Below, piece after piece: positions 1 through 17,142 of a DNA stretch of 64,000 nt. The translations under genes were made by a program, and so were the position numbers. This stretch comes from an uncultured Tateyamaria sp. (GTDB taxonomy: Bacteria; Pseudomonadota; Alphaproteobacteria; Rhodobacterales; Rhodobacteraceae). How positions within the stretch are numbered: the first letter of the stretch is position 1; each line of letters opens with the position of its first letter. The notes below the pieces were generated by a model that did no database searches, was not told where the DNA came from, and was given only the letters and a program-made list of their open reading frames with translations. The DNA lies in contig NZ_CANNES010000004.1 in the NCBI RefSeq assembly GCF_947503705.1, positions 1 to 64,000 of the forward strand. Direction: 5' to 3'.

Positions 1-87
1 AACAGAACTTCTATGCACAGCGCGACGTGCTCGATATGGTCGCGTGAAATGAAGCTATAGGTCTCCGGTAAACCCGGGGCGGTTCAC

Positions 88-3000
88 TTAGACAAATATG
101 AGATCATCGTTGCTAAAACCTGACAAGTCGCCGACTGATTGCAGAACAGCCACCGCATCGGCGCCCACAGAGACGGTGATCTCATTGGTTTCGTTGTTGT
201 AGACGAACGAGGTCGAGCCAGCGCCGGTGATTTGGAAAGTGTCCAAACCCAGTTCGAAATCGGTTACCAGATCGGTGCCGGAGGCCGAGTCTGTCGCGAA
301 AAAGACAAACGTGTCTGCCCCAGCTCCGCCAATCAGAACGTCATTACCGGCGCCGCCCGCGATCTCGTCACTGTCAGCCCCTCCGCTGAGAGTGTCGCTG
401 CCACCGCCCCCCAGCAGCAGATCGTTGCCGTCCTCGCCTGCCAGAACATCCGACCCGTCGCCCCCATCCAGCACGTCATTGCCGTTTGCACCCAGAAGCG
501 TGTCGTCGCCGCTCCCCCCAGTGGCGGTGTCATTGCCTTGCCCCATCCGCAGTTCGTCATTGCCTGCCTCGCCATAGATCAGGTCATCGCCCTTGCCCGC
601 CCCCATAAGGTCATCGCCCGATCCGCCCCAGAGCGTATCGTTGCCTCCATTGGCCCACATCGTGTCGTTGTCCGCCTCGCCATAGAGCAAGTCCTGACCG
701 GCTCCACCGCCCACGACATCGTCGCCCGCGCCGCCCCACATGGTATCAGCGCCGCGCCCGCCCCAAAGAACGTCGTCGCCGATTTCGCCAAAGACCACGT
801 CATTGCCTGTCCCACCGCCCAGAGTGTCGTGCCCAAGGCCGCCATAAACCATGTCGTTGCCAGCGCTGGCCCAGGCCACGTCATTGCCGTTGCCCGCCTC
901 AATCGTGTCATTGCCACGCGCTCCGCCCAGGGTGTCATTACCTGTTCCGCCGATCACCAGATCGTCGCCAACCCCGCCCCAGACCTGATCGTTGCCCTTC
1001 GCGCCATCCAGTGTGTCGTCGCCATTGCCTCCAAAGATGACGTCGTGGTCGTCTCCCCCTTCAGCTAAATCACTGCCATTGCCGCCTTCAATCGTGTCAT
1101 TGCCCCGGCCACCAAAGACAGAGTCGTGTCCGCTGTCCCCAAACAAGTCATCATGTCCAGCGCCACCATCTATCATGTCATTACCGTCGCCACCCGAAAC
1201 CCAATCACTATCATTCTCCCCCCAGATTTGATCAGCTCCTTGATCGCCAAAAATAGTGTCGCTCCCGTTACCACCCCACATTACGTCGTCGCCCGAACCG
1301 CCATCAAGATAATCGGAGCCGGCCCATCCCTTTAGATTGTCCCCTCCACCTCCACCAAAAAGTGAGTCGTCACCTCCCCACCCACGCAGACTATCTGAGC
1401 CTTCGTCCCCATGAACGACATCATTGCCCGACCCGGAGTTTACAAAATCGTCGCCAAATCCACCGAACACGGTATCGCTTCCTTCGCCAGACGACAAACT
1501 GTCGTCACCAGCTAACAAATCCACGATATCGTCATTGCTTCCAGTCTCCAAAACATCATTTAGAGCCGTTCCTTGAAATTCTGAGTAGTTTGGTAGTTCG
1601 TAGACAAGCTGAATCACTTCGTAGGGTAGAAGTTCAAACGTAAACCCGCCGTCACTCAAGACAGCGCTTTCGTCCAAAACGGTAACAGTCGCCTGAACAT
1701 CATGTTCATTTATATAGTACAATTCACCATTGACAGTAATTGATATCGCATCCTCCCAAGAATCCGTTCTATAATTAAAGTGAATGCCATCCGAGGTGGA
1801 CTGATCATACCCAACTTGTATAGCCGACGTTAAAGTGCTTCCGAGGAAGAGATCCCCAAGACTGAACGTTACTTCTTCAACATCATGAGACCTTGATGAT
1901 ACGTAAACTACGACGCGATCATCGTCAGCATATAAGTGCTGGATAACTTCCGAGCTGGATTGCGTCACTACCGTTGGGTGAAACTCTAATCCTTGCAGAT
2001 TAGAGGACATAAGATCAAAAATCGCTCCACCGACGCTATTGATAACAATGCCTGAGACAGGATCAACCAACACTTCATTTGGTCCAGTTAAATCACTTGA
2101 TGTATTGACATGAGGCGGCCAAATATATGCTTCGTCCGCTCCCAACTCAAGTATGTGAGTGAAGTGGGAAATTAGGCTGGAAGCAGCTCTCATACCAAGT
2201 TGGTCCAAGTTAGATACGCGGATGTTCCACTCAGTAATATTGAGTGTAATATCATCTCCAAGCGCCTCTACCCACATAGCGTAGTCAAGGCTAATCATTT
2301 GGTCATTGGCTAAGTCCTGCTCAATAAATTGCGATCCACCGCGTAAGTAAAAATGTTCAACGACACCATCGATATTTTCCCGTGCTTCTGGCGACAACAT
2401 ACTTAAAAGTGTCTCGTTTGCTTCAATCGTCCGTGTTAACCACCCGCGGTCATCATTTGTGATATGGAACTCACTCATACTGCCGCCAGCATCGCCCATT
2501 TGCACCCAGATAGGTATGTCTACGCCTTCTTCTTCAAACGCCGCAGATATTTCCAAAACCGAGTCGTTAGCAACTTGACCATAGGAAGTTTCCGTTTGGT
2601 GATTCCAATATTCATTTCCTATTTCGATGGCATGAACAACGTCTGCAAAGTCTCTTGCGATTAAATGGGCAAATTCACCCACTTCTTCCGCACCTGGGTA
2701 GGCTTCATGTGTTGGAGTTACAACTAAGACCTTTTGCCCATTGATCCTTGCATTTTCTAAAAAAGACACCAAGTGAGCGGGGAGTTCACCATCAATAACC
2801 ATGCCATCCAAATACGCGATGTCTGGTTGTCCAGCCGGATATCTGATGTGTTGTATGTCCAGTGCATCTACTGCGTCAACATAGTCTGAGTCTGGAACGC
2901 CGTTATCTGTGTTATGAGTATATAAAGCGTTACCGCCAAAGTGCTCAGAAGATACCACATGGCCCGTTTCATAATACTGCTGTAAAGTTAGTTCTGGCAT
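88..3000 (-). CDS. Secreted RTX protein: N-terminal clan GH-A (TIM-barrel) glycoside hydrolase-like domain fused to a long block of GGxGxD calcium-binding nonapeptide repeats; type I secretion substrate
   Basis: 970-aa ORF. N-terminal region carries the 'IEIGNEYW' (acid/base NE) and 'NITEWNI' (nucleophile TE) motifs typical of clan GH-A hydrolases. The C-terminal half holds >40 GGxGxDxx(L/V/I) RTX repeats. It ends in ...DDLIFV, a type I secretion-like C-terminus. ATG at 3000 has a GGGGG Shine-Dalgarno. Confidence 0.8.
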   Translation of the reverse strand: MPELTLQQYYETGHVVSSEHFGGNALYTHNTDNGVPDSDYVDAVDALDIQHIRYPAGQPDIAYLDGMVIDGELPAHLVSFLENARINGQKVLVVTPTHEAYPGAEEVGEFAHLIARDFADVVHAIEIGNEYWNHQTETSYGQVANDSVLEISAAFEEEGVDIPIWVQMGDAGGSMSEFHITNDDRGWLTRTIEANETLLSMLSPEARENIDGVVEHFYLRGGSQFIEQDLANDQMISLDYAMWVEALGDDITLNITEWNIRVSNLDQLGMRAASSLISHFTHILELGADEAYIWPPHVNTSSDLTGPNEVLVDPVSGIVINSVGGAIFDLMSSNLQGLEFHPTVVTQSSSEVIQHLYADDDRVVVYVSSRSHDVEEVTFSLGDLFLGSTLTSAIQVGYDQSTSDGIHFNYRTDSWEDAISITVNGELYYINEHDVQATVTVLDESAVLSDGGFTFELLPYEVIQLVYELPNYSEFQGTALNDVLETGSNDDIVDLLAGDDSLSSGEGSDTVFGGFGDDFVNSGSGNDVVHGDEGSDSLRGWGGDDSLFGGGGGDNLKGWAGSDYLDGGSGDDVMWGGNGSDTIFGDQGADQIWGENDSDWVSGGDGNDMIDGGAGHDDLFGDSGHDSVFGGRGNDTIEGGNGSDLAEGGDDHDVIFGGNGDDTLDGAKGNDQVWGGVGDDLVIGGTGNDTLGGARGNDTIEAGNGNDVAWASAGNDMVYGGLGHDTLGGGTGNDVVFGEIGDDVLWGGRGADTMWGGAGDDVVGGGAGQDLLYGEADNDTMWANGGNDTLWGGSGDDLMGAGKGDDLIYGEAGNDELRMGQGNDTATGGSGDDTLLGANGNDVLDGGDGSDVLAGEDGNDLLLGGGGSDTLSGGADSDEIAGGAGNDVLIGGAGADTFVFFATDSASGTDLVTDFELGLDTFQITGAGSTSFVYNNETNEITVSVGADAVAVLQSVGDLSGFSNDDLIFV

Positions 3001-3885
3001 TGGCGCCCCCGAGATTTCTTTTCAAAAGGGGTATTTGCGCTATCTCATCATTGCCATGTAACGTCAGTGGGTATTTTATTTATGTTCTATTGAAGTTCTC
3101 GAGGTTCCTTATTTTTGAAATTGTTCCGCCATAATTTGGACATTTTCCACCCATGGATAATTCATTTTGAGTGCTTTTGGGAACCAATGTTTAGTGCTTA
3201 TGGTTGGATTATGGCAGTCACCTAAAATTCGATTTTTTTTGATCATCAACCAAATTGCAAGGAAACGTGTTTTTTGTAATTTGACGTACCTGCTTGTCAG
3301 CTTGGTGCCCGTTTGATCTCTGGCGATTCGTTGTCTAGAGTCAGGGCTCATGCCCAAAATATGATGGTTGCTACGAAGTCGATTATCGAGAGGAAAACCT
3401 TCTGGCGGCGGTCCCAGCAGATTGCCACGCGTCGGCAACACTTGAGCCTGCCTACCGTGATCTCGACCCGGTTGCGCCGTTTGTATCAACGCCTGTTCTC
3501 TTCCCGACAATGTATTATGCAGAAGTGTCACGAGAGGGGTATTTGAAAGTTTTCTTCAGCTGGTCTGGCCAGGGGCACATGAGCGTATCCCTTTGTCTGT
3601 TAACGATTATCTGGAGTATTTGGCATCGTTTACGTATTCTCTCAACAGCCAGCCGAAATCTGGCAATCTGCTTCGCAATTCTCGTGCGCAAACGTAGTCG
3701 CTGACCTGACCGGCCGTGACGGACAGGTTGGGCGGACTGCCCTGACTATCGCAAATCGCGTTCAGCTTGGTGTTTCATCTCTGCATGGGTGCGTCCGATC
3801 AAGCGTCCGCACCCTGTTTCTTCATGCCCATGCTGCTCGCTGTTCGGTAGGGTTTGAGATGCGGCGGGTTATTCATGACTAACTT

Positions 3886-4584
3886 TTGATCGCCATGCTC
3901 GGCTGTCAGGCTCGCTATTGTGCCCGATTACAGTACGTTGTGTCGTCGCCAGAAGTCTTTGAACGTGAACTTACCCTATCGCGGGGGAACTGGTTCGATG
4001 AACTTCTTGATCGTCAGCGCAGGAATCAAATTGGAGGGCGAAGGCGAGTGGAATGCACGCAAACATGGCTGCCCGAAATGCCGGATCTGGCGCAAGATGC
4101 ATATTGGGTTGAATGGAAAAAGTACTAGAAGTACGGGCTGTAGAGATCAACACCAGCAATATAGGTGGTGCGCCGATGCTGCCAGAATTGCCAAAGTAAA
4201 CTCCACCAGATCCGAACATAGGATCATGGACAGCCGATGGAGCAAATGATACGCGCAAATGCCACGAGGCGATTGCCGCCAGTAACGCTTATCAGCGATC
4301 CCGCCGCGCAAGAACGCCAAGCCCTGGAAAGCGACAAGCGCCGGAGCTATTGCCTAAAACGACGCGGTCAATGCGCCGCGGCACTTGGGGCGTACAGTGT
4401 TGCTGCGCTGAAGTGGATGCCATCGCCGAAGTCGCATCGCAACCAAGATGTAGTGTCTGAAACTGATGGGCTAATCGTTCATGGCACGGGACTTCGACGG
4501 GAGGTAGCGGAGATCCAAATCCGCATCGCCGTGCTCAATCGCTACGCTACGCTTCGCATACCCGTCACTGAATCTGTAGGCTAA
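3886..4584 (+). mobile_element. Degraded IS5-family (IS903-group-like) transposase relic, split over at least three frames
   Basis: Translated fragments 'PDYSTLCRRQKSLNVNLPYRGG...MNFLIVSAGIKLEGEGEWNARKHGCPKCRIWRKMHIGL' match the IS903/IS5 transposase core (DYSxLxxRxKxLxV ... DSTGLKVxGEGEW ... RRxWRKLH). The downstream fragment '...LNRYATLRIPVTESV' resembles the IS903 C-terminus. There is no intact ORF and the surrounding sequence is AT-rich. Confidence 0.55.
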
Positions 4585-5470: not shown

Positions 5471-6409
5471 ATGCTCTGGTTGGCAGGTTTGATGAGTATC
5501 ATGGTTGTTGGCGCGGTTGGGATCACTGATATGGGTGGGGGCTCGAACGTGGACGATGAGGCCAACACGAATACCGGCGAGAGCGATGCGGCCACGAACA
5601 GCGACGACACTATCGATTATCCTGATGCGCCGGATGACACTGATCTGAGCGATGGTTCTGCGGATGATGAGACCCTGACAGGCACTGTAGAAAGCCATAG
5701 CCACTATGGCGGTATAGGCGATGACACAATTGCGGGCGGAGCAGGCAACGACACCCTGCACGGCGAGGATGGTTCCGACTTGATAGATGGCGGCGCGGGC
5801 GCTGACCAATTGTTTGGCCACAACGATAATGATACGTTGATCGGCGGGACGGGTAATGACACGATGCAGGGCTCTGCTGGAGATGACATCCTAAACGGCA
5901 ACGCGGGCGATGACGCGGCGCATGGCGGGTTGGGCAACGATACGCTGAGCGGAGACGCAGGTCAGGACAGCCTCTTTGGCGGCTATGGCGACGATGTGAT
6001 AAACGGTGTCCAGGACGATCCAGACACTCCCGAAATGGACGATACCGATACCGGCGATTTGCTGAACGGGGGCAGCGGTGAGGATCTGATCATCGCGGGC
6101 GAAAATGACGTTGTAATCCCCGGCAATGGCAACGACACCATTGTCCTCGGCAGTTGGATCAACGAAGGGCACGCGGCGGATATAATCAATTTCGATGCCG
6201 AAGATGACAATATCCTTCTGGTCTATGAAGATGGCGCGGCGGAGCCCGAGATCACGTTGCAACCCGACCCGCACGACGCGCAAACCACACATGTTTTGAT
6301 GAACGGCGTGGCCGTGGCCCATGTGGGCAATGGGACCGTTTTGTCGCTTGAGCACATCGCGGTTATGCCGCTCAGCCTTGCGCAGTCATCGGGCATAACG
6401 TCGCTGTAG
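5471..6409 (+). CDS. RTX calcium-binding repeat protein (type I secretion substrate candidate)
   Basis: 312-aa protein. A hydrophobic N-terminus and an acidic linker are followed by ~12 consecutive GGxGxDxL repeats ('[28 protein letters not shown]...'). Confidence 0.8.
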
Positions 6410-6590
6410 AAGCGTGTCACACCCGTGGATCGTGGTGTCAATAAAGCTTTGACATCGCAGTGCTTCTTTTACAATGCATCGTCACTTCCTGCGTTCCCCT
6501 CAGGGGCTGTAAACATGATACTCCGCAGGACGATTTCCTGGGCGACGTCAAAATCAAAAAGGCTTAACTTGAACGACGCCCGTTGTTGGA

Positions 6591-6911
6591 TCACTTGACG
6601 ATCAGCAGATCGTCCATGGATGCGCCATTTGCGACGGCGTCCTTCACCCAATTCGGCTGGCGGCCTTTGCCGGTCCAGGTCATAGCAGGGTTTTCGGGGT
6701 GGCAGTATTTTGGGGCTGCTTTGCTGCCTTTGGTTTTGGTGGCCCCGGTCAGTTCTCCAAGCGCAAAGCCCATTTCAGCCGCTTTGGCTTCCACAGCCGC
6801 CAGCGCTTCCTTGCGCTTGCGTGCCTGGAACGTATCAATGGCTTTGGTGGCTTGTTTTTGAATGGCCTTCAGTTCTTCGAGCGACAAATCATCCCAGTTG
6901 ATGTCGGTCAT
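6591..6911 (-). CDS. H-NS-like histone-like nucleoid-structuring protein (xenogeneic silencer family)
   Basis: From the internal ATG (6911): 'MTDINWDDLSLEELKAIQKQATKAIDTFQARKRKEALAAVEAKAAEMGFALGEL...KYCHPENPAMTWTGKGRQPNWVK'. This combines a coiled-coil N-terminus with the C-terminal H-NS DNA-binding motif (Y/C-x-HPENP-x-x-TW-x-G-x-GR-x-P-x-W), the alphaproteobacterial H-NS type. Confidence 0.8.
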   Translation of the reverse strand: MTDINWDDLSLEELKAIQKQATKAIDTFQARKRKEALAAVEAKAAEMGFALGELTGATKTKGSKAAPKYCHPENPAMTWTGKGRQPNWVKDAVANGASMDDLLIVK

Positions 6912-7196
6912 GTTTGTATCCTTTCTTGCGTCTCCAATTATGGCGCTAGTACAATCGGCAGTCCGTCGCAACGTGTAGAACGATTTGTTTGGTTTATTCG
7001 CGCGGAGCGGGCGTTTATGTGCCCATGCCCGTTCAGAATGGCGTTAAACCAATGGGTTATGATGCCGATGCGCGTCAAATTGGGGGGTGGTGACCGCATA
7101 CAACTGTATGTGTTTGATGGGTTTTCTTGATTTATTGGCTGAAGTGTGTTCCTTATTTGTTCCAATTGTTGAACCTGTATTGAGTAAGGAGTTTTT

Positions 7197-7454
7197 ATGA
7201 GTAACCAACAAGACACCCGATTATCACCGACCCGCAAGCCCAGCCTATTGGGGTATTCAGTGCGCCCCATTGGTGATGGCAAGAGATCCTCGTGGAGCAA
7301 GATTGCGGCCGCCTGGGCGCATAAAGACGGGGAAGGCTATGAGGTGCGCTTTGATGCGCTGCCTGTGGATGGCCGGATGGTGTTTAGAGCGCCAAAGGAA
7401 GACGACCGAGAGACTGGCGATGTGATTGAACGAGAGCCGTCAGGCCTTGGCTAG
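7197..7454 (+). CDS. Small conserved hypothetical protein (85 aa), possibly DUF736-like, of the kind seen next to ardA/parB on alphaproteobacterial integrative elements
   Basis: ATG ORF. 'IAAAWAHKDGEGYEVRFDALP' loosely resembles the DUF736 core (IGAAWxK...DYLSxKLDDP). The similarity is weak. Confidence 0.4.
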   Translation: MSNQQDTRLSPTRKPSLLGYSVRPIGDGKRSSWSKIAAAWAHKDGEGYEVRFDALPVDGRMVFRAPKEDDRETGDVIEREPSGLG

Positions 7455-8420: not shown

Positions 8421-8502
8421 CGGGAGTGCAGCCCCAAGCTGTCCCATGCGGACGGTTTGAGGGTGCAATTCCGCGCCAATCCAAAAAAATCAGGAGATTA
8501 TT

Positions 8503-10221
8503 ATGACACTGCAACATATCAACATCGAAGACCTTTCCGTGTCCCCCCTTAACGTGCGCAAATACGGTGCCAAAGACTGCGCCGATCTGGTGACCAGCAT
8601 TCGCGCCCTTGGCGTGCTGCAACCGCTGCTCGTGCGCCAATCCGTAGACGGATTTGAAGTCATCGCAGGCCAGCGCCGCTTGAATGCGTGCCGCATCATT
8701 GCCGAGGACGGGGACATTGACCCGCTGCCGTGCCTTGTGATGGCAGAAGGGGACGATGCCAAAGCCATCGAGGCCTCTTTGGCAGAGAACATTGAGCGTC
8801 TGCCCATGGACGAGGTCGATCAATACAAGGCCTTTGCCAAGCTGATCAAAGAGGGGCGAGAGCCTGCGGATATTGCCACCACCTTTGGGATCACGGAACG
8901 CATGGTGTCGCAGCGTCTGGCCTTGGGGCGACTGCACGCACCCATTCTGACCGCCTATCGCAAGGGCGATATCCACGCCCGCGACATCCGCATTCTGACT
9001 ATGGCGACAATGAAGCAGCAAAAGGCTTGGTGGGCGCTTGTGAAGGATGACGAGGCCTACGTCCCCACAGGCCACCGCCTAAAGGGCTGGCTCTTTGGCG
9101 GGGCACATATCCCCGTTGCCAACGCGCAGTTTGATGTCAAAGCCTCTGGTCTTGCCGTGGTGTCCGACCTGTTTGGCGAAGAGGCCTATTTTGCCGATGC
9201 CGAAGCGTTTTGGGTCAAACAGGAAGAGGCCATCCAGATGATTGCCACAGGCTATGAAGTGCTGGGCTGGGCGGAAACCGTTGTCATGGAACGCGGCGCG
9301 TATTTCGCCGGATGGGATCATCAAAAGACGACCATGAAGGACGGAGGACGGGTATTCATCACCGTGAGCCATCAGGGCGAGGTGACCGAACATGAAGGCT
9401 ATATCACCCGCGCTGAGGCCAAGCGCCGCGAGAAGGCCGCAAACGCGGAGGCAGGGGACAAACCGCCCAAACCCGAACTCACCAAAGCCGCACAAAATTA
9501 CGTCGATCTGCACCGCCACGCCGCTGTGCGCAGTGATCTGTTGGGTCAACGCAGGATCACCTTGCGTCTGATCGCGGCGCACATGATCGCAGGATCATCC
9601 CTTTGGCGGGTCGAGGCCGATCCGCAAAAAGCGGCAAAGCCCGAGATTGCAGACAGTCTGGAACGCAATGCAGGCCATCACCGGATGGAGGCCGAGCGCG
9701 CCGACATCAAAGCTTTGCTCGGTATAAACGACGACACGGCACTCATGGACACCGCGAATGCGTGGTCACCGCGTCCCTGCATCACAAAGGTCTTTTCCAC
9801 ACTCCAAAGCCTGTCGGATGCCGAGGTCACCCGCATCCTCACCTTCCTGATGGCAGACAGCCTGTCCGTTCACAGCCCGCTGATCGGCACCTTGGGCGAG
9901 ACCATGGAAACCGACATGCGCAACCAGTGGTCACCAGAACCGCTCTTCTTCGACCTTGTGCGCGACAAACAGGTGTTGAATGCCATGGTGCGGGAATATG
10001 CGGGTGAAACAGCGGCGGATCAAAACCTGACCGCAACCGCCAAAACCCAACGCGCAATCCTGACCGCCTGTTTGGAGGGAACCCGCGCACCAGAGCGCGA
10101 AGACTGGATGCCCGACTATATGGCGTTTCCAATGGGCAGCGATCGCTATGAGGTGGACGAGACGAACGGTGACGTTGAGGCTTCCGATCACACCGACCAA
10201 GCGCAGGCGGAAGCTGCATAG
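8503..10221 (+). CDS. ParB-like nuclease domain protein (ParB/KorB/Srx superfamily), ICE/plasmid-type
   Basis: 572 aa. The N-terminal 'IEDLSVSPLNVRK...LVTSIRALGVLQPLLVRQSVDGFEVIAGQRRLNA' matches the ParB N-domain (GxxRxxA box). The long C-terminal extension is typical of ICE-borne ParB-like proteins. Confidence 0.8.
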   Translation: MTLQHINIEDLSVSPLNVRKYGAKDCADLVTSIRALGVLQPLLVRQSVDGFEVIAGQRRLNACRIIAEDGDIDPLPCLVMAEGDDAKAIEASLAENIERLPMDEVDQYKAFAKLIKEGREPADIATTFGITERMVSQRLALGRLHAPILTAYRKGDIHARDIRILTMATMKQQKAWWALVKDDEAYVPTGHRLKGWLFGGAHIPVANAQFDVKASGLAVVSDLFGEEAYFADAEAFWVKQEEAIQMIATGYEVLGWAETVVMERGAYFAGWDHQKTTMKDGGRVFITVSHQGEVTEHEGYITRAEAKRREKAANAEAGDKPPKPELTKAAQNYVDLHRHAAVRSDLLGQRRITLRLIAAHMIAGSSLWRVEADPQKAAKPEIADSLERNAGHHRMEAERADIKALLGINDDTALMDTANAWSPRPCITKVFSTLQSLSDAEVTRILTFLMADSLSVHSPLIGTLGETMETDMRNQWSPEPLFFDLVRDKQVLNAMVREYAGETAADQNLTATAKTQRAILTACLEGTRAPEREDWMPDYMAFPMGSDRYEVDETNGDVEASDHTDQAQAEAA

Positions 10222-10280
10222 CACATCTTTGTTGGATGGGTGATTCCATCCGGCAAGGTTTTTGTTGGGGGATAAAAAAA

Positions 10281-10312
10281 GGCGCGGGGGCCAAGTCCCT
10301 GCGCCGCACTGC
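10281..10312 (-). terminator. Candidate intrinsic terminator on the minus strand (GC-rich hairpin followed by a U7 tract)
   Basis: Minus-strand RNA reads GGCGCAGGGACUUGGCCCCCGCGCC followed by UUUUUUU. The stem has one mismatch. There is no annotated minus-strand gene upstream within the ~1-kb AT-rich gap 10.3–11.26 kb. Confidence 0.35.
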
Positions 10313-11262
10313 GACCCAACAGGCCGCAATCTGATTGACGGCTCGCGCCGCCAACTTCTTTTTACCTATCAGTAGCCGAATTAAGCAGTTGGAATTTGCT
10401 ATTGCGAACCAAAGCATGGCTTGGCAATTGTGTTGAAAACGGCAGCAAGCGAACAACTGCTGGCAGCCAAATGCAGCCACAGACTTCGTTGTTGATCAAA
10501 TTGCATAAATTGCAAGCGAACCTCAGTCTATGACAGCGCCATATCATTGCAACAATCACGGATCGCAAATGCATATTCCCTTTGGTCGAGACGAGATCGC
10601 ATCCTTCTTAGAGATAGTTCCTCAAAAAATTGACCTCCCTTGGCGTCGAGGCTTTTTAATTAAGTTGCCGCATTGCAACCGTCGTCCCGTCGCATCTTTA
10701 AGCTATTCAAAGATATACGATCTTCTAGAATATGCACTCGGTCACACCGATCTTCCGGATCGCATCCTGGCGCGGCATACCTTGCCCTGTCAGAACCCAA
10801 ACTTGCCGTGACCTCGTAACAATCTCGTCGGGCTTGGGTCGCTTGGTTGCTATTGCTGGTTCTCCGTTTCCTAAACATCGGAGCGGACCACTTCAAAGGG
10901 GGAACTTGAGCAGTCGTTATGCCACCACGTATACTGGTATCGGTCTCATTCTGTATTGTCCAGATGAGTAAGCTGTCCCAGCGGCACCCAACCTTCTGCG
11001 AAAACGATGAGACCACGGCTGACCTGCTTCGATATTCGCTTTCGTGATCCAAGACCATGCCCACAACACGCGAACGCAATTTGTACGGATATCCCTTTCC
11101 AGAGTTCTATTTTTGCATAACCCAGTATCACTACTTTTGGGTTTCCGGCAAGAACGGAGCGGTTCATAGCAGTCGTAAAGTTTTTATCAAGATTACCATG
11201 CGACTGATGGCAACGGTCGTAGTTGCTTCAACGTCAGTTGCTTCAGGCCTTGAGTTAAATCG

Positions 11263-12816
11263 ATGGGAGACGTCAGGATGACGGGTATTGAGTGGAATCT
11301 TGGTTTGCCAGTCGGCGATGATCATGCTGACACAAACAGAAACAACGGTTGGGGAGATACCGGTGGGCTGAAGACCCTCCCAGCCTTCCACCATTTCGCA
11401 GATTACTATGCGGTTCTGGAGGATACGGATATTCTCGCTGTGAACAATGGAGTGGTAACAGACTGTGTTAGCAACACTGACTCGACCTCCGATACAGGTT
11501 CGGGGTTCGGCAACTACGTATTTATTGAACATACTCTCCCTTGCGGAAACAACGTTTACTCGATGTACGCCCAACTAAGCTCTGTACATGTGACTGGGAG
11601 GCAACCCGCAGGAATTGGTGACAAAATCCGAGGTCACAACGGTGACAATACCATCACAAGTGCAGATGATGATAACGTGCTCTGGGGGGACACGGCAAAT
11701 GACCTTATCCAAGGCCTAGTCGAGGATAAACTGCTCGGGGGGCTTGGTTCGGACACGCTCTACGGCAGCACTGGCGACGAACACCCGCGCGGCAAGCATG
11801 GCAATGACATGATTGACGGTGAGGCCGGGATAGACACCGTATTTTCTTGGGGAGAGTTTGAGAAGATTTCCAGTGTCGAAATCTCACCTAGCGTCACCCA
11901 CATCGCTGGCATTCGGGCAGACGGTCAAGAGGGCGTCGATACGTTGACGGATGGAGAGTACCTAGAGTCTTTTGACACTACAATTGCTGCGAGCGACTTC
12001 TTTGAAGTAGCCCGCTCTGCGACAACTAACGCAGCGGATACGCAAGCTGAGTGCCTGATCTCCGTCGATGTGCGGGCGAATGATCAGACCAATGCCACGG
12101 ATGCCTGGCTTGCCGAAGGATCAGTTATTCGCGGCAGCGGCGTCGTCTCAATCATCAGCGGTCAATTGGTGTACGACCCCCAAAACGACTACTCGCGTTT
12201 GCTGGGAGACCAGTCAGAAGATGTCACGATGAGTTACGCGTTTGAGACTTCCGGTGGTCAGACTGCGGAAGGGGCTCTAAACGTGGCGGTCAATTGGTCA
12301 ATAATGGCAATGAGTGGTACAACGCATGACGACACCTTTGATGGCAACTGGGCCAATGACTTGCTTCACGGGGCCGGAGGTAATGGTACTTTGAACGGTG
12401 GCGCTGGCAATGACTCATTTAAGGGCGGGGTTGGAGCAGACATTTTAGTTGGAGGCTCAGGAAACGACACTTTGACGGGTGGTGCTGGGGCCGACGTGTT
12501 CGTGTTCGATCGGGAGGCTGGATTTGATACGGTGATCGACTTCGAGGTAGGTACTGACAAGATTGACCTGTCCGCGCATCTAGAAGATGTCGGGTTCGTA
12601 TTGTTCGATCTCAATGGTGATAGCTACGCAAAGATATCCTGCTTTGAGGACTTCGCATTTGGCCGCCTAACACTGGATTTTGTGCAGAATGGCGACGATG
12701 CCGAAATATTCGCCCTATATGACGGTTTGGAAATAGGTCGTGATGGAAAAGGGCTCGTTGTGACACTTGAGAATATTAGTGTTGCTGATCTCTCCATTTC
12801 GGATTTTGTTTTTTAA
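11263..12816 (+). CDS. RTX protein with an N-terminal M23 (LytM-like) metallopeptidase-type domain; probably N-terminally truncated or decayed
   Basis: 517 aa. 'FHHFADYY' supplies the HxxxD motif and '[32 protein letters not shown]' the M23 GxGNxVxIxH...YxHL core (YAQL replaces YAHL). The C-terminus has [46 protein letters not shown] RTX repeats and ends ...SDFVF. There is no signal peptide or normal N-terminus, and 1 kb of AT-rich non-coding DNA lies upstream. Confidence 0.7.
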   Translation: [517 protein letters not shown]

Positions 12817-12967
12817 GGTATGCAAGGCTCATTGGTGCATCATACTGGTTCATACGAATAAATACTCGCATAGTCTTCTAAAACGATGGACCAACTGGTT
12901 GACCTGCCCCGCGGAACTTCCCTCGTTCTGATGTAGAGTTTGCTCAACCTTTCGAAGGAGCAAACAC

Positions 12968-13231
12968 ATGCGAAAGAGCCGTTTCACTGAAGCGCAGATT
13001 ATCGGGATGATCAGAGAGCAAGAAGCCGGAATGCCGACAGCGGAGGTTTGCCGCAAGCACGGTCTTAGCCAAGGCACGTTCTACAAATTCAAATCCAAGT
13101 ATGGCGGCATGGAAGTGTCTGATGCTGCTAAGCTGAGGGCGCTGGAAGATGAGAATGCCAAGCTGAAGCGTCTGCTCGCGGATCAGATGCTCGACAACGT
13201 TGTGTTGAAGGACTTGCTGGGAAAGAGCTGA
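12968..13231 (+). CDS. IS3/IS407-family transposase OrfA (HTH)
   Basis: 'MRKSRFTEAQIIGMIREQEAGMPTAEVCRKHGLSQGTFYKFKSKYGGMEVSDAKRLRALEDENAKLKRLLADQMLDN' is the canonical InsE/IS407 OrfA. Confidence 0.85.
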   Translation: MRKSRFTEAQIIGMIREQEAGMPTAEVCRKHGLSQGTFYKFKSKYGGMEVSDAAKLRALEDENAKLKRLLADQMLDNVVLKDLLGKS

Positions 13232-13269
13232 CGACATAGAGCGAACGGCGGGACGCAGCGCTTCGAGCA

Positions 13270-14130
13270 ATGCGGGATCACGACATCTCGCAGCGCCGGG
13301 CCTGCTAGCTCGTTGGTGTCGACCCCAAAACCGTCCGGCGCGAACGCCCGCCTGACAACCCAGAGATACGGAAAGAGATGAAGGCTATCGCGGCCAAGCG
13401 GCGTCGGTTTGGCTATCGCCGGATCGGCGTGATGCTGGAACGTGAAGGGTACGTAATGAACCACAAGAAGCTGTATCGGCTTTATACAGAGGAGAAGCCG
13501 GGTGTCAGACAACGACGGGGCCAGAAACGGGCGCGTGGCTCGCGGACACCGATTCCTGAGGCGCTGAGGCTGGGCAAGCGCTGGTCGCTGGACTTCCTGT
13601 CCGACACCTTCGGGGCATCGCGGAGGTTCCGCATTCTGGCGGTGAACGATGATTGCTGCCGCGAGAACCTGGGTTTGATGGCCGATACCAGCATCTCGGG
13701 TACCCGTGTTGCGCGAGATCTGGACGCGCTCGTCCGGCTCTATGGCAAACGGGTCAGCATTGTCAGCGACAATGGAACCGAGTTCACCAGCTGAGCGATC
13801 CTGAAGTGGGCCAACGATAACGGCGTCGACTGGCGCTACATTGATCCCTGCAAACCCCAGCAGAATGCCTTCATCGTGTCATTCAAGGGCAGCCTGCGAG
13901 ACGAACTTCTGAATGAGGAGATGTTCGACTGTCTGGATGAGGCCCGCCGCAAATTGGCGCTCTGGCGATACGACTACAACAACGTCAGACCTCACGCATC
14001 TCTGGAAACCAAACGCCCGCAGAAGCGCGCCGAACGCTTGAGCAATTTGAGGGCTCCGCGCCCGGCGCGCTTGCCCAAACTGACGACGAAGAATATGAAA
14101 ACCAGACCCGCAAACTCTCGTTATGAATGA
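13270..14130 (+). pseudogene. IS407-group transposase OrfB (DDE integrase core) inactivated by two in-frame nonsense codons
   Basis: One continuous frame reads 'MRDHDISQRRAC*LVGVDPKTVRRERPPDNPEIRKEMKAIAAKRRRFGYRRIGVMLEREG...[57 protein letters not shown]...'. TAG at 13306-13308 replaces the conserved Q (RRACQ, CAG to TAG). TGA at 13792-13794 replaces R/K (TEFTSRAILKW, CGA to TGA). Both are C-to-T transitions. Confidence 0.8.
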
Positions 14131-15322
14131 GGGAGCCTCGGGGGGCAGGTCAGGTGTGTGCGAGCGTGGCAAGGCATTGTGAACTGCGTTGGTCTTGTGG
14201 CGGGTCCCTTGTCCCAGTGGCTTTACAGACACCTGGCCGAGGCCACGTTTGAGACTGTCGTGATGGACACACGGCAGGTTAAGGGCGCCCTGAAGCGTAT
14301 CGGGGTGGTACTGCATCGCATGTGGCGCGATGAAACCCCGTTCCTGTTTACCCGAGCGGAGCCGATCATAGCCTAGCAATCTGATACCAAGAGGGAAAAA
14401 GCCCACGCGCAGTTGCGTGTGCTTTGAGGTCCCAACCGGGACGCAGTCCCCGATGACGTTGTCAGCGGACTAGATGCTGGAAAACCACCTCCAAGCACGC
14501 GCAAAGATGGGCGCTCGGGACCTGCACTGGGACCAGGCATGATGTGGCAGCTCTGGCGCTGACTACGGACGGAAGCATCACCCCAGTTTGGATCAATCAT
14601 GGCACAACCAAACGTGGCACAAAGAAAGTCAGTAAAATGCCAGAAGCACTGTTCATACGCGAGAACCCTATTGTTACGACAGCAATGGGCTTGACACACG
14701 CCCCAATATGGAAGCCTGCTTTCTGCGCATAGCAGACGTCTCGGCTCGCTAGGTACGGAGCCTAGCGACGCTTACCTAGCCTAAGGTGTATCGAGCGCGC
14801 TCTTATGAGGAAAAGTACCAAACAACTTCCCAAATCCATGCGACGTGGAAGGGGCAGATTCCGGCGAAAAATAATGCCCTACCCAGCTTTGCTGGTTTGG
14901 CATTATTATTCACCGGTTCTAGTGTTTGCATCTTTTTTTAACATGTGAAGAGAAGTGGCTTCACGCCCACATTTGTTGGTTTCAGTTCGTTGATAAGTTT
15001 AGTGGCCCTGCTCAAAGCACCCCAACACTATCGAAACCTGGTTAATTATGAATGAACTCACCATCAGGCCATCTGCCTCTTGTCATGTCGTTGCGGCACA
15101 CCTTTACCGCATGGGCGACCCCATCCGGCAAGCCTCTAAAAACGTTGGACAAAAACAGATTTTTGTGACATGATTAGGACTGCATTCCTAGAAATCCGCC
15201 CAAATTTTGGACCGCAGCCCGCCCGGCTGCGGCCCGCGCCCTTTGGCGCGTGCGGATTTGTTTTCTTAACCAGTAACTTCGAAACGCGCGCCCCAACAGG
15301 GGCGCGCGGGAAAGTGTTTTAC

Positions 15323-15538
15323 ATGTCCCCCGATCTCGACAAATACCGCCGCATCGGTGAGGCGGAAGGCGAATACGGGCTCAGCAATCAGGCTCTGCTC
15401 GCCCTTTGGGCGTCTCTTGAAGACCTTGCGGCCCGCCCCGACGATTATCCACCGATTTGCGTATCCACACCCCACGCTAAAGGCGACTCTGACCCCTCGC
15501 CTGCGCTACACTCAAACCAGAAGGAGGCCAGCCCATGA
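15323..15538 (+). CDS. Small hypothetical protein translationally coupled (ATGA) to the serine recombinase; possible recombination directionality factor
   Basis: ATG 15323 opens a 71-aa ORF 'MSPDLDKYRRIGEAEGEYGLSNQALLALWASLEDL...'. Its stop overlaps the recombinase start at 15535-15538. Confidence 0.35.
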   Translation: MSPDLDKYRRIGEAEGEYGLSNQALLALWASLEDLAARPDDYPPICVSTPHAKGDSDPSPALHSNQKEASP

Positions 15539-17142
15539 CCACAGCCGTGATTTACGCCCGCGTTTCCTCAAAAGCGCAGCTCAAAAAGGGGGACGGCCTT
15601 GCCGGACAGGAATCCCGATGCCGCGATTTTGCAACCTATCGCGGCTATGACGTCGCAAAGGTCTTCTTTGAGCGCGGCGTCACAGGCCGCATCGACAACC
15701 GCCCCGCCATGCGCGAGATGCTCACATGGCTGCGCAAACACCGCAAAGACAGCCCCGTTGTCATCATTGACGACATCTCGCGTCTTGCCCGCAATCTCGA
15801 AGCCCATATCAAGTTGCGCGCCACTATCGGCGCGGTCGGCGCTCAACTGGAAAGCCCCTCCATCGAGTTTGGCGACGACAGCGACAGCCGCCTGATCGAG
15901 AACATGCTCGCCAGCGTGTCCCAACATCACAGCCAGAAAAACGCCGAACAGGTGCGGCACCGGATGAGGGCACGGCTCAAGACGGGGTATTATTGCTTTT
16001 GGGTGCCAACGGGTTATGCCTATGTCAAAGGGGCGGGCGGTGGCAAAGTCCTTATGCGCGATGAACCCGCCGCTAGCCTGCTCCAAGAAGCACTGGAAGG
16101 CTTTGCCTCAGGCCGCTTTGGATCACAGGCAGACGTGGCACGGTTCCTCGCCCCGCACCCGATCTTTGCACGAGACGCCAAGGGCAACATTCACCCGCAG
16201 CGCATCAAGAACCTGCTCACAAACAAGATTTATGCGGGTTACTACGCTTATCAGCCGTGGGGCATCGGCCTGACAAAAGGAAAGCATGACGCGCTGATCT
16301 CATGGGACACGTTTGAGCGTATCCAAGCCCGCATGAAGGACACCACAACGGCACCACAGAAGATCGCCAGCACCGACGATTTCCCTTTACGCGGTTACGT
16401 CGCCTGCGACGGCTGCGGACATCCCATGACGGGTTATTGGGCGAAGGGGCGCAACAAGCGCTATGCCTACTACGAGTGTTTCCAGAAGGGCTGCGAATTA
16501 CGCCGCAAATCCATCAAGCGGGCGGACATCGAAGACGCGCTCGAGAGCCTATTACAGTCTCTGACGCCAAGTCGTGGATTGATCGCCGTCGCCGCTGAGA
16601 TGTTCAAAGACATCTGGGACGGGCGTATCGCGCAGTGGCAAACCCAGCGGAAAGCGCAAAAGACCGAACTGGCGCGGATTGAGGCGCAAATCAGCAAAAC
16701 GGCAGATCGTTTGATCGACACGACCAGCACCGCCACCGAACGCGCGCTCGAGGCCAAGATCGACAAACTCGAAGCACAGCGGGTCAAACTCGCCGAAGAC
16801 CTGGCCTATTCCAAGCCAAAACCCGATGACTTCCAGCGAAAATTTCGAACCGCTCTGGCGTTTCTCGCAAACCCTTGGAAACTCTGGGAAACAGGCCGAG
16901 GCAGTGATCGCCAAACCGTCCTGAAACTGGTTTTTGACAATCCCATCCCATATGCGCGTGAAACAGGGTTTCGAACCGCAAAAACCACCATACCATTCAA
17001 TACCTTAGACGATATCGAAGGGGCGAAAAGGAAAATGGCGGAGACTGTGGGATTCGAACCCACGGGACGCTCTCACGCCCAACGGTTTTCAAGACCGCCG
17101 CATTCGACCACTCTGCCAAATCTCCGTCAAACCATGCTTTAG
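15535..17142 (+). CDS. Large serine recombinase (resolvase/invertase N-domain, recombinase domain and zinc-ribbon), island integrase; its 3' end reads antisense through the tRNA-Ser gene
   Basis: 'MTTAVIYARVSSKAQLKKGDGLAGQ' contains the catalytic serine motif (YxRVSS). Further motifs are 'VVIIDDISRLARN' and the zinc-ribbon Cys cluster 'CDGCGHPMTGYW...YYECFQKGC'. A coiled-coil C-terminus follows. There is no stop codon until 17142, so the ORF covers the tRNA at 17036-17125. Confidence 0.85.
   Translation: MTTAVIYARVSSKAQLKKGDGLAGQESRCRDFATYRGYDVAKVFFERGVTGRIDNRPAMREMLTWLRKHRKDSPVVIIDDISRLARNLEAHIKLRATIGAVGAQLESPSIEFGDDSDSRLIENMLASVSQHHSQKNAEQVRHRMRARLKTGYYCFWVPTGYAYVKGAGGGKVLMRDEPAASLLQEALEGFASGRFGSQADVARFLAPHPIFARDAKGNIHPQRIKNLLTNKIYAGYYAYQPWGIGLTKGKHDALISWDTFERIQARMKDTTTAPQKIASTDDFPLRGYVACDGCGHPMTGYWAKGRNKRYAYYECFQKGCELRRKSIKRADIEDALESLLQSLTPSRGLIAVAAEMFKDIWDGRIAQWQTQRKAQKTELARIEAQISKTADRLIDTTSTATERALEAKIDKLEAQRVKLAEDLAYSKPKPDDFQRKFRTALAFLANPWKLWETGRGSDRQTVLKLVFDNPIPYARETGFRTAKTTIPFNTLDDIEGAKRKMAETVGFEPTGRSHAQRFSRPPHSTTLPNLRQTML
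17036..17125 (-). tRNA. tRNA-Ser (anticodon UGA) with encoded CCA
   Basis: Reverse complement reads GGAGATTTGGCAGAGTGGTCGAATGCGGCGGTCTTGAAAACCGTTGGGCGTGAGAGCGTCCCGTGGGTTCGAATCCCACAGTCTCCGCCA. It has a 7-bp acceptor stem (one G·U), a D-arm, anticodon loop CTTGAAA (anticodon TGA), a long variable arm typical of Ser, a T-loop GGTTCGAATCC and discriminator G. Confidence 0.9.

Follow-up and report, generated by a model that had tools for sequence, protein, structure and literature searches.

Large serine recombinases (LSRs) of the phage type, such as those of A118/LI, Bxb1, phiC31 and TP901-1, act at protein-coding or intergenic sites, and tRNA and tmRNA genes have been held to be targets of tyrosine integrases only (PMC4383910). 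The only later literature note that we found on serine integrases at tRNA sites concerns 14 computational cases: the TIGER analysis placed 14 of 297 serine-integrase elements at tRNA or tmRNA sites, and its authors stated that such use 'has not been reported previously' and that experimental proof was needed (Mageeney et al. 2020, PMC7192596). Among tycheposon-like marine elements, ~27 of 937 carry an LSR (Hackl et al., bioRxiv 10.1101/2020.12.28.424599). Both papers give counts only, without a family, a fixed register, an overlap of ORF and attP or an att anatomy. In mycobacteriophage BPs, where a tyrosine integrase acts, attP lies inside the repressor gene, and the tail exchanged there has been proven to be a degradation tag (PMC4557955, PMC3694055).

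The locus that we compare with these systems lies in a window (the whole stretch of DNA analysed, 64 kb) from a Tateyamaria (Rhodobacterales) chromosome, in which ARAGORN found a single tRNA gene, tRNA-Ser(tga), that is tRNA-Ser(UGA), at 17036–17125 on the minus strand. Positions 1–17035, directly downstream of this host gene, probably represent the recombinase-proximal part of an integrative island. The original prediction for this DNA had described a decayed island at the tRNA-Ser beside an LSR reading through the tRNA, and empty or scarred sites in relatives, the GC contrast and the gene content all bear this out. The features of the locus are as follows, with L001/L003 standing for another Tateyamaria genome (isolate 203), L002 for a further strain, L092 for T. 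armeniaca and L093 for Tateyamaria sp. SN6-1.

1–17035, unstranded: probable visible part of the island (lower GC, no similarity to L002, site empty in L092, scar in L093)
88–3000, minus strand: RTX-repeat protein, 970 aa (HemolysinCabind, E 1.4e-88)
3920–4249, plus strand: IS5-type transposase fragment (DDE_Tnp_1_5, E 6.4e-10, C-terminal end of the profile only)
5471–6409, plus strand: RTX-repeat protein, 312 aa (HemolysinCabind, E 3.6e-23)
6591–6971, minus strand: H-NS-like gene (Histone_HNS, E 3e-16; 76% identity to the H-NS of the L001 island)
7915–8420, plus strand: ardA pseudogene, frameshifted (match to L001 ArdA in two reading frames)
8503–10221, plus strand: ParB_N-domain protein with its 3' end replaced (ParB_N, E 1.1e-12)
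10155–15120, unstranded: insertion of ~5 kb relative to the L001 island (collinearity with L001 interrupted from 10154 to 15120)
11263–12816, plus strand: M23/RTX protein (HemolysinCabind) inside the ~5-kb insertion (Pfam)
13378–13794: IS3-family rve/HTH_21 fragment inside the ~5-kb insertion (Pfam)
15170–15538, plus strand: 122-aa ORF with an ATGA overlap with the recombinase start codon (no Pfam match)
15535–17142, plus strand: 535-aa ORF of a large serine recombinase (Pfam domains Resolvase, Recombinase and Zn_ribbon_recom)
17036–17125, minus strand: host tRNA-Ser(UGA), intact, with the T-arm TTCGAACC at 17053–17060 (ARAGORN)

The low-GC left flank was confirmed, with 53.6% GC at 1–17035 versus 62.0% at 17126–64000 (~8 points below the core), as were the genes named in the prediction (H-NS, a split ardA, a ParB-like gene, three RTX ORFs, and IS5-type and rve/HTH_21 fragments) and the housekeeping block of SPOR, PBP5, tmk and holB genes that begins directly right of the tRNA. 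The 'multi-kb AT-rich non-coding gaps' also described there were not found: the lowest GC (~1500–3000) falls within the 970-aa RTX ORF, and the stretches without main ORFs are at most ~1.4 kb long and hold short ORFs without family matches. This 970-aa ORF is cargo or possibly lies outside the island, and a counterpart is absent from the other Tateyamaria loci. The 168-aa ArdA of L001 matches the window in frame 1 at 7915–8133 and in frame 3 at 8082–8417, with a Pfam ArdA match to the second piece only, and the ParB-like ORF aligns with its 581-aa L001 homologue over residues 1–549, up to position 10155. With ardA frameshifted, parB truncated by a 5-kb insertion holding IS remnants and the left end out of sight, the island is decaying, although its recombinase looks intact. 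The 122-aa ORF upstream of the LSR is kept in the closest relatives only (74% in L001, 30–43% in L004–L009) and may encode an accessory factor, such as one for recombination directionality. No recombination directionality factor was identified.

Related genomes were compared for empty tRNA-Ser sites, as had been suggested with the prediction. The tRNA-Ser/SPOR/PBP5/tmk/holB block recurs in T. armeniaca with the island absent, its empty site reading ABC-transporter genes, a ~245 bp spacer and then the tRNA-Ser, and in Tateyamaria sp. SN6-1 the island position holds only an 85-bp scar with a P'-like arm. In the L001/L003 genome this position is occupied by a compact island with H-NS, ArdA, ParB and LSR genes. 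Strain L002 is 99–100% identical to the window right of the tRNA, and its similarity stops exactly at 17036; divergence from L002, L092 and L093 alike starts immediately left of that position. The 3'-terminal 28 nt of the tRNA-Ser are identical in L001 and L002, and over 95 nt counted from its 3' end L001, L002 and L093 agree everywhere save at the far (5') end. The empty and scarred sites of L092 and L093 contradict, for Tateyamaria, the idea that the tRNA next to the LSR is cargo borne by the element. They also bear on a second reading, in which there is no mobile island at all and the region is an old, vertically inherited variable stretch with a domesticated host recombinase at a tRNA locus. 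The degraded state of the island, the failure to see an excised form and an LSR that is 91% identical at the same site in the L001/L003 genome would fit such a history. We nevertheless consider it extremely unlikely, given the patchy distribution within Tateyamaria (the site is empty, scarred, occupied by an island or holding other DNA), a GC content 8 points under that of the core, close homologues of the recombinase in Alpha- and Gammaproteobacteria, Nitrospinaceae and others at different tRNAs, and near-identical element ends in one alphaproteobacterial MAG and one Alcanivorax MAG.

The domains, catalytic-stretch and zinc-ribbon residues, predicted coiled coil and A118 match of the window enzyme identify it, at the level of sequence and model, as a large serine recombinase. 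PF00239 matches residues 4–151 (E 1.4e-24), and PF07508 (E 7.4e-8) and PF13408 (E 2.1e-7) are also matched. In the R-V-S-S active-site stretch, R9, V10 and S11 are invariant among 13 aligned sequences and conserved to at least 90% when 70 are aligned; the zinc-ribbon cysteines C291, C294, C315 and C320 are invariant, and all family-invariant residues are present in the window protein. Comparison with solved structures gave a distant match to the A118 integrase (E ~4e-4). An AlphaFold2 model predicts a coiled coil at 347–424, with helices at 347–395 and 399–424 (block-mean pLDDT ~72–90), and pLDDT falls below 50 from residue 491 onward. As had been predicted, the ORF is open to 17140–17142 and covers the entire tRNA in antisense, so that the protein consists of a folded part (residues ~1–491, 15535–17007), a linker (492–500) and residues 501–535, which are encoded by the antisense tRNA and flanking DNA and are predicted to be disordered and outside the fold. 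An exact-protein look-up found no record of the window LSR or of fragment P0037.

This passage of the ORF through the tRNA is not peculiar to the window locus and is the conserved architecture of a whole recombinase family. The family comprises at least 564 loci among species-representative genomes, and its homologues, among the matches listed, span Alpha- and Gammaproteobacteria, Nitrospinaceae and other groups, beside different tRNAs. A complete antisense tRNA with its 3' (CCA) end at an identical offset was present in 64 of the 80 loci examined, representing 17 isoacceptors of 7 amino acids, and a tmRNA gene takes this place in one more locus, bringing the total to 65 of 80. Where a complete tRNA comes after the gene, the LSR tail is tRNA-encoded; elsewhere it is different. 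The tRNA target tracks recombinase relatedness: 13% of recombinase pairs share the tRNA amino-acid class at 40–50% identity, versus 88–100% above 70% identity. Together, these enzymes apparently form a large, undescribed LSR family aimed at tRNA and tmRNA 3' ends, and we think it likely that a member of this specialised family placed the island at the tRNA 3' end in the window.

The same counts weigh against the possibility that a classical tyrosine integrase, lost or beyond the window, inserted the island and that the serine recombinase is mere cargo (a resolvase or invertase) beside the tRNA. A cargo gene would not hold single-nucleotide register with 17 tRNA species and a tmRNA across 65 of 80 loci, nor would its relatedness predict tRNA type. 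L056 and L078 share a small element that lacks a tyrosine integrase, and none of the window ORFs scanned matched the Phage_integrase domain. P4-like tyrosine-integrase elements also often strike the tRNA genes of these loci, which could favour this origin, but where present they sit between LSR and tRNA as later arrivals. With the island's left end out of sight, and with a literature that assigned tRNA and tmRNA genes to tyrosine integrases only (PMC4383910), insertion by a tyrosine integrase retains some appeal, and we judge it very improbable.

A separate matter is whether the overlap of ORF and tRNA, as opposed to the placement of the island by the LSR, has any biological meaning. In all 78 distinct family sequences the reading frame stays open up to the tRNA end; first stops are scattered from +20 to beyond +800. 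In our estimation there is an even chance that the overlap is meaningless, the protein effectively ending at ~residue 491 and the tail being a harmless by-product of an attP at the gene end, with neither tail-swap regulation nor accessory sites. This proposal concerns the significance of the overlap only and is compatible with LSR-driven insertion. It is favoured by the predicted disorder of the tail, by a tail conservation no greater than the tRNA sequence imposes, and by the scatter of first stops. It is harder to reconcile with the complete absence of stops from the 11 codons that precede the tRNA end (0 of 78), which looks constrained, since only ~59% of sequences would be stop-free by chance (our own estimate), yet the constraint could act on the DNA, as an att arm, and not on the protein.

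Conservation upstream of the tRNA shows that the 3' end of the recombinase gene is under an additional layer of constraint. The features of this region, together with the adjoining core, are:

16843–16851, plus strand: first TTTCGAACC motif, coding F-R-T, family position −193 (position and synonymous-site conservation)
16969–16977, plus strand: second TTTCGAACC motif, at family position −67 and coding for (G)F-R-T, earlier read as a 'degenerate tRNA-like' sequence (codon and position conservation)
16996–17035, plus strand: probable P arm of attP/attR inside the ORF, with TTC-AAx (−40 to −35), the Leu codon TTA (17005–17007) and an A-rich linker
17036–17044, unstranded: core region TGGCGGAGA, antisense to the 9 terminal nt of the tRNA, which comprise acceptor strand, discriminator and CCA (junction comparison)

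The sequence TT[TC]CG[AG]AC stands at exactly −193 in 41 of 78 loci, with the A at −188 invariant, and synonymous-site conservation in this motif is 0.76 versus 0.28 expected for the Arg codon and 0.81 versus 0.29 for the Thr codon. The second motif stands at exactly −67 in 43 of 78 loci, and its Arg codon is CGA in 62 of 79, a codon that makes up only 10% of Arg codons gene-wide. It corresponds to the sequence at 16957–16980 that had been taken for a degenerate tRNA 3' end; the string GGGTTTCGAACC is indeed there, at 16966–16977, but it is a G-F-R-T coding motif, conserved at the DNA level too, and not a leftover att repeat. In the P arm, TTC is present in 76 of 79 loci and TTA in 69 of 79, although TTA accounts for only 10% of Leu codons gene-wide, and synonymous-site conservation is raised over the last ~75 codons of the gene. 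A search of the LSR 3' end for an intrinsic terminator that could serve the tRNA predicted none. The TTTCGAACC motifs at −193 and −67 and the tRNA T loop at +17 are spaced by 126 and 83–84 bp, or ~12 and 8 helical turns. It is conceivable, and in our view doubtful, that the last ~200 nt of the gene are dual-use, the two phased, T-loop-like TTTCGAACC copies acting as accessory recombinase-binding or regulatory sites and the extension of the ORF across the core tying the C-terminal tail, and hence recombinase level or directionality, to the integrated or free state. To our knowledge, no such accessory sites have been described for large serine recombinases. A related possibility is that the motifs represent fossil tRNA ends absorbed into the ORF; reading the G-F-R-T regions as fossil T arms was unsupported, with only ~2 bp of flanking complementarity.

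An att repeat was sought within 1–17035 of the window using a 28-mer (3 mismatches allowed), a 15-mer (2 allowed), anchored 9-mers and also the P' motif, and none was found, in agreement with the original statement that the left repeat is missing from the window. Neither an attL nor an excised or free form of the window island was found, and its left boundary has probably decayed or falls outside the window, to the left of position 1. The far-end junctions of other loci match the tRNA 3' end over 9 nt in L056, 8 in L093, 10 in L021 and 12 in L019. Since these junctions share only 8–12 nt with the tRNA, the crossover probably falls within the final ~9 nt of the tRNA gene, with attP probably overlapping the 3' coding end of the recombinase itself; a repeat of 20–60 nt from the tRNA 3' end, which had been put forward as a probe for the far end, is for the same reason unsuitable. 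The core at 17036–17044 would be the sole part of the tRNA gene that the element need supply, and it is the probable crossover site.

Crossover mapping leans mainly on the one element pair L056/L078. The attL of L078 reads GCGCC, and its junctions overlap in GCGC at +4 to +7; alternatively, it could be a decayed tRNA-type attL with 2 mismatches. Palindromic core dinucleotides only, as in the candidate core GCGC, are unusual for an LSR. A dyad-symmetry scan of the junctions gave no significant centre, with a weak maximum at +4/+4.5. The sequence AACC is found at +26 to +29 in the P' arms of L056/L078, L093 and L021, and at +21 to +24 in the tRNA T arm. A true attP was not seen, because the phage collection holds no homologue of the family and the plasmid collection one partial match. 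A metagenome pattern scan with the core and the P' motif returned a single match, probably by chance. An unexplained feature of L056 is a direct repeat of 118 bp, 109 nt of which belong to the recombinase 3' end.

Several candidate att sites were rejected. In viral contigs considered as a source of attP, the LSR lies at the edge of prophages with their own P4-like tyrosine integrase; the 14-nt tRNA fragment of L089 is the insertion mark of that prophage, not an attP, and L086, L088 and L091 read like L089, with the integrase not identified in these three. Fragments of 14 nt in L010 and of 44–56 nt in L026, L029, L045 and L065 reflect later, secondary insertions at that tRNA: L010, L026 and L045 have tyrosine integrases next in line, and in L029 a full tRNA copy lies 3.1 kb away. 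L013 was discarded as a P' arm, with a tyrosine-integrase remnant and then tRNA-Ser(gga) at that position, and L072, a candidate attL, coincides with the start of a gene and probably matches by chance.

From the junctions and the conserved motifs we infer the following mechanism. In the free circle, attP would overlap the 3' end of the recombinase gene, its P arm being formed by the last folded codons and the 9-codon linker, followed by a core of at most ~9 bp identical to the tRNA gene end (antisense TGG-N-acceptor strand) and then by the P' arm; the circular junction would be expected to read LSR 3' end, TGGCGGAG, P' arm. LSR dimers would assemble on attP and on attB, the latter comprising a B' half-site made of the acceptor 3' strand and T arm and a B half-site made of the DNA downstream of the tRNA. 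The universal T-arm TTCGAACC is probably the outer (zinc-ribbon-domain) recognition motif, and acceptor-stem sequence probably decides the tRNA choice of each lineage. Catalysed by the LSR, strand exchange at a dinucleotide within the core would therefore rebuild an identical tRNA, leave a very short repeat at the far end and join the recombinase ORF to the antisense tRNA, swapping its unstructured C-terminal tail. With a crossover inside the ORF, the integrated and free forms would encode different C-termini, a change that may or may not have a regulatory effect.

A family of hundreds of LSRs that appears to target tRNA ends systematically and with a defined geometry contradicts the generalisation that tRNA and tmRNA genes belong to tyrosine integrases alone (PMC4383910). 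Such islands will escape island finders built around a tyrosine integrase plus a long repeated tRNA fragment, because the repeat is only 8–12 nt, and recombinase ORFs with '...MAExxGFEP...' ends should be annotated as read-through into an antisense tRNA. The T-arm motif appears to be constant and the acceptor-stem part variable, a division that suggests a route by which such enzymes switch targets. Serine integrases do not need host factors and short sites suffice for them; a family with attB at tRNA ends could therefore offer ready landing sites in many bacteria.

Compared with the phage-type LSRs, the window family keeps the order of domains, a resolvase catalytic domain being followed by a recombinase domain and by a zinc ribbon into which a predicted coiled coil is inserted, and the identity between attP and attB would be similarly short. 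It may also resemble A118/LI, whose attP outer motif reportedly (Rutherford et al. 2013) lies 5 bp further out than that of attB, since the putative outer motif AACC is shifted outwards by 5 bp in the P' arms relative to the tRNA T arm of the B' half-site. It differs in its targets, tRNA and tmRNA 3' ends, in an attP that probably overlaps the coding end of the enzyme with no stop before the tRNA end, and in ~60 extra C-terminal residues after the coiled coil, which contain the two F-R-T motifs; its sequence similarity to the solved structures is only distant, and it resides on chromosomal islands, with none in the phage collection and one partial match in the plasmid collection. With Islander-type and P4-like tyrosine-integrase islands it shares an integrase gene adjoining an intact tRNA with the island downstream of the tRNA 3' end, a tRNA that would be regenerated from element-borne sequence, integrase clades that use different tRNA genes, and islands stacked in tandem in one tRNA. 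Its serine catalytic type is, however, unrelated, arm-type sites are not expected, and the displaced tRNA fragment is 8–12 nt versus 14–17 or ~44–56 nt for other, mostly tyrosine-integrase, insertions in the same loci. The gene affected in BPs is a repressor, whereas in the window family it would be the serine recombinase itself, with antisense tRNA as the new tail. What this family probably has in common with BPs and with the SSV1 integrase, whose gene contains attP, is a crossover inside an ORF through which integration alters the encoded C-terminus.

At the edge of a low-GC region in the window, the gene for a large serine recombinase (LSR) runs through an entire tRNA gene on the opposite strand. 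The features at this boundary are as follows:

17036-17125, minus strand: tRNA-Ser(tga), identified by ARAGORN, the sole tRNA in the window
15535-17142, plus strand: LSR ORF of 535 aa with Resolvase, Recombinase and Zn_ribbon_recom domains
1-17035: three RTX-repeat ORFs, an H-NS gene, a ParB_N protein, an IS5-type DDE fragment and an IS3-type rve fragment

The first stop codon of the LSR ORF lies at 17140-17142, so that the whole of tRNA-Ser is read antisense, as the original prediction had stated. GC content is 53.6% to the left of tRNA-Ser versus 62.0% in the remaining window. On the left, ardA is frameshifted and split across two reading frames, while SPOR, PBP5, tmk, holB and tatD follow immediately on the right. 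The mobile-gene and pseudogene content and the adjoining housekeeping block were thus found where they had been described, but the claim of multi-kb non-coding gaps was overstated: the lowest-GC stretch is inside a 970-aa RTX ORF, and stretches without any main ORF reach at most ~1.4 kb. A 122-aa ORF (15170-15538) overlaps the LSR start codon (ATGA); it has no family hit and is conserved solely upstream of the closest LSR relatives.

By its housekeeping proteins, the source belongs to Tateyamaria (Rhodobacterales). A comparison with related strains had been proposed as a check for an empty tRNA-Ser site, and such a site is present in T. armeniaca, where branched-chain ABC-transporter genes and a ~245 bp spacer precede the tRNA. 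In Tateyamaria sp. SN6-1 (locus L093), only 85 bp are added to the left of tRNA-Ser, opening with a second TGGCGGAG copy followed by GGTTTGGACAAAGTGCGAACC. Within this scar (L093 9612-9696, adjoining tRNA-Ser(tga)), the tRNA end occurs twice in partial form, as TGGCGGAGC and as TGGCGGAAG. Its arm, GACAAAGTGCGAACC, matches at 13/15 nt the far-end arm of an element found in two unrelated hosts (L056 and L078), and it lies at the same distance as the L056 arm, after 8 nt of tRNA-Ser identity. The island of the uncultured Tateyamaria isolate 203 is compact: besides H-NS, ParB and an intact ArdA, it encodes a small ORF and an LSR that shares 91% identity with that of the window. The metagenomic contig L002 shows 99-100% identity to the right-hand part of the window as far as 17036; leftward it is unrelated and has a small ORF, IS481, and capsid and portal genes of a phage. 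The boundary of variability among these relatives is therefore exactly the tRNA 3' end, and the island predicted at this site is real.

In L002, two IS481 copies flank tRNA-Ser (5725-8864), with the phage capsid and portal genes to the left, and a 304-aa LSR fragment that is 90% identical (P0037), presumably of the same contig, lies away from the tRNA; this arrangement suggests an IS-mediated rearrangement. Relative to the island of isolate 203, the window has a ~5 kb insertion (10155-15120) that removes the 3' end of parB and brings in an M23/RTX gene and the rve fragment. Together with the frameshifted ardA, this makes "decayed" a fair description. Neither a tRNA-end repeat nor a P'-type arm was found in 1-17035, in agreement with the reported absence of a left att repeat; the left end of the island is outside the window or lost.

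The overlap between LSR and tRNA is a property of a family. Nearly all of the best 120 homologues (48-91% identical, mostly from marine Alpha- and Gammaproteobacteria) end alike, with ...GFRTAKTTLPFKxL, nine variable residues and M-A-x-x-x-G-F-E-P..., the last part being antisense tRNA, although the tRNA differs between homologues. One homologue (P0043) is labelled Symbiodinium microadriaticum by its source, and most likely comes from a contaminating or associated bacterium whose DNA entered the assembly. When the trimmed family alignment was used to scan one genome per species, at least 564 family loci were found. In 64 of the 80 loci examined, the opposite strand bears a complete tRNA whose 3' end has an identical offset from the conserved Leu codon, with an identical reading frame across the tRNA end (xTG-G..); most of the remainder are contig ends or later disruptions. 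One further locus, from a Nitrospinaceae MAG (L066 11493-11860), has a tmRNA gene (tag peptide ANDYEIAVAA) at the same offset. The tRNAs involved span 17 isoacceptors and seven amino acids (Arg, Ser, Thr, Ala, Val, Glu and Leu). In all of 78 distinct sequences, the 11 codons that precede the tRNA end are free of stops, and first stops fall from +20 to beyond +800, where position 0 is the T of TGG (antisense of the tRNA 3' CCA; window 17036) and negative positions run into the island.

Two recombinases that are 40-50% identical have their tRNA amino-acid class in common in 13% of cases; above 70% identity, this share rises to 88-100%. Such tracking of protein relatedness would be expected if the recombinase sets the target, and would not be expected of a passenger gene. 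In L007, a visibly different LSR of 558 aa (12471-14442) lies ~1 kb to the right of the family LSR. Its end is ~220 bp away from tRNA-Gln(ttg), and it may likewise be a tRNA-associated serine recombinase. Alcanivorax MAG10 has at least three family LSR copies (L047, L049 and L078), two of which, L047 and L049, have a common right flank after 22 nt of tRNA-Ala-like sequence.

The last ~75 codons of the gene show unusually strong constraint at synonymous positions. CGA makes up 10% of Arg codons gene-wide versus 62/79 at the G-F-R-T motif and 46/78 at the upstream F-R-T motif, and TTA makes up 10% of Leu codons gene-wide versus 69/79 at the invariant Leu (-31). Both F-R-T motifs are TTTCGAACC, fixed at -193 (window 16843-16851) and -67 (16969-16977); each shows a strong preference for CGA, a rare Arg codon, and position -188 is always A, including in sequences that encode another amino acid there. 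Both look like the T-loop TTCGAACC at +17, and the three are spaced 126 and 83-84 bp apart. The "degenerate tRNA-like" sequence noted earlier inside the island is the second of these motifs, at -67. Neither motif has T-stem complementarity, so a simple "fossil tRNA" is not supported. An AlphaFold2 model built from 70 family members (mean pLDDT 78.8) has the LSR layout, with a coiled coil at 347-424 and a small C-terminal region to ~490. Since pLDDT is < 50 at residues 491-535, the linker and the tRNA-encoded tail are predicted to lie outside the fold. On the tRNA sense strand, a T-rich run directly follows CCA (window 17008-17035, minus strand; CCA-TTTTCCTTTTC; family consensus CCA-TTTCnnTTTTC) and corresponds to the linker's Glu/Lys codons. 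The run may contribute to terminating or processing the tRNA, although prediction gave no canonical terminator.

At many loci, and in all informative viral contigs, the LSR is followed by just a tRNA piece of 8-56 nt. We considered these pieces as attP, the site of the free element, and mostly rejected them, as these arose when other elements subsequently entered the same tRNA. A P4-like tyrosine integrase follows the piece in L010, L026, L045 and L089; in L013, a tyrosine-integrase remnant and then tRNA-Ser(gga) follow; and in L029 a 3.1-kb insert, not assigned to any type, separates the piece from the full tRNA. Later elements push the LSR element outward from the tRNA and leave tRNA fragments of 8-45 nt next to the LSR; the tRNA genes at these six loci are stacked-island hot spots.

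The far end of the element was located in L056 (an alphaproteobacterial MAG) and L078 (an Alcanivorax MAG), which carry the same 6.4-7.5-kb element with a helicase and without a tyrosine integrase. At tRNA-Arg(ccg) in L056, the far end reads TGGCGCGCC joined to TTGACCGACAAAGTGTAAACC, and tRNA identity ends after 9 nt. Anchored far-end matches are similarly short in L021 (10 nt, 7.0 kb upstream) and L019 (12 nt, 4.5 kb upstream). At the opposite junction, divergence of the window and its relatives from the empty sites begins immediately left of position 0. The element therefore contributes at most ~9 nt of the tRNA gene, namely CCA, the discriminator base and a few acceptor-stem bases, and these alignments indicate that the crossover should fall between 0 and about +8. 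The element in L056, 7.5 kb long, is also flanked by a 118-bp direct repeat (3811-3928 and 11390-11507, 96.6% identical) comprising the last 109 nt of the recombinase gene and 9 nt of tRNA-Arg, which is probably what is left of a related element that occupied this tRNA before.

In L078, the element has ordinary host genes on both sides and no tRNA. Its junctions, ...GGTTGT/GCGCC-TTGACC... and ...GAAATGGCGCGC/TCAAT..., overlap in GCGC alone (+4..+7), and if this is a pseudo-site insertion, the crossover would be narrowed to these 4 nt. However, all dinucleotides of GCGC are palindromic, which would be unusual for a serine integrase core, and the far-end junction (attL) of L078 may alternatively be of the tRNA type and slightly decayed. 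A dyad-symmetry scan of the junctions found no significant centre. AACC occurs at +26..+29 in the far-end arms of L056/L078, L093 and L021, and at +21..+24 in the tRNA T arm. In the A118/LI integrase, as reportedly described by Rutherford et al. (2013), the zinc-ribbon-domain motif lies 5 bp further out in attP than in attB, the host site; by analogy, the AACC offset would match this outward shift.

From known serine integrases, we infer how such an element might integrate. The attP of the free element would consist of a P arm formed by the recombinase's own 3' coding end, a core of at most 9 bp of tRNA 3' end, and a P' arm with AACC. LSR dimers would bind attP and attB, the latter being the tRNA 3' end, with the acceptor strand and T arm as one half-site and the downstream flank as the other. 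Strand exchange at a central dinucleotide in the core would restore an identical tRNA, leave a minimal repeat at the far end, and swap the unstructured tail of the recombinase for antisense-tRNA-encoded residues. Excision would need a directionality factor, for which the 122-aa ORF is a candidate and nothing more. More speculatively, the enzyme might be regulated by the swap of its tail or by convergent transcription that starts at the tRNA promoter.

Only tyrosine recombinases were known to target tRNA and tmRNA genes according to the Islander paper (PMC4383910). The TIGER paper placed 14/297 serine-integrase elements at such sites, stated that this "has not been reported previously" and called for experimental proof (PMC7192596). 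Surveys of marine and Mesorhizobium elements mention serine recombinases only in passing. Among open-access papers and bioRxiv, we found no earlier account of such a family, nor of its fixed register, overlap of ORF and attP, or att anatomy. The window LSR is only distantly related to solved structures such as the A118 integrase (E about 4e-4), and is recognized as an LSR by its domains and predicted fold. Systems whose attP is inside a gene, for example the integration-dependent immunity of phage BPs, are analogous as regards the tail swap, but the window LSR is not a member of such a family. As a decaying island, that of the window is ordinary. What makes it interesting is the recombinase, through which a large and apparently uncharacterised family comes to light: serine integrases that appear to target tRNA ends and that have an unusual overlap of gene and att site. 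The island is functionally like the tRNA islands of tyrosine integrases, but differs from them in integrase family and in the length of the displaced tRNA fragment.
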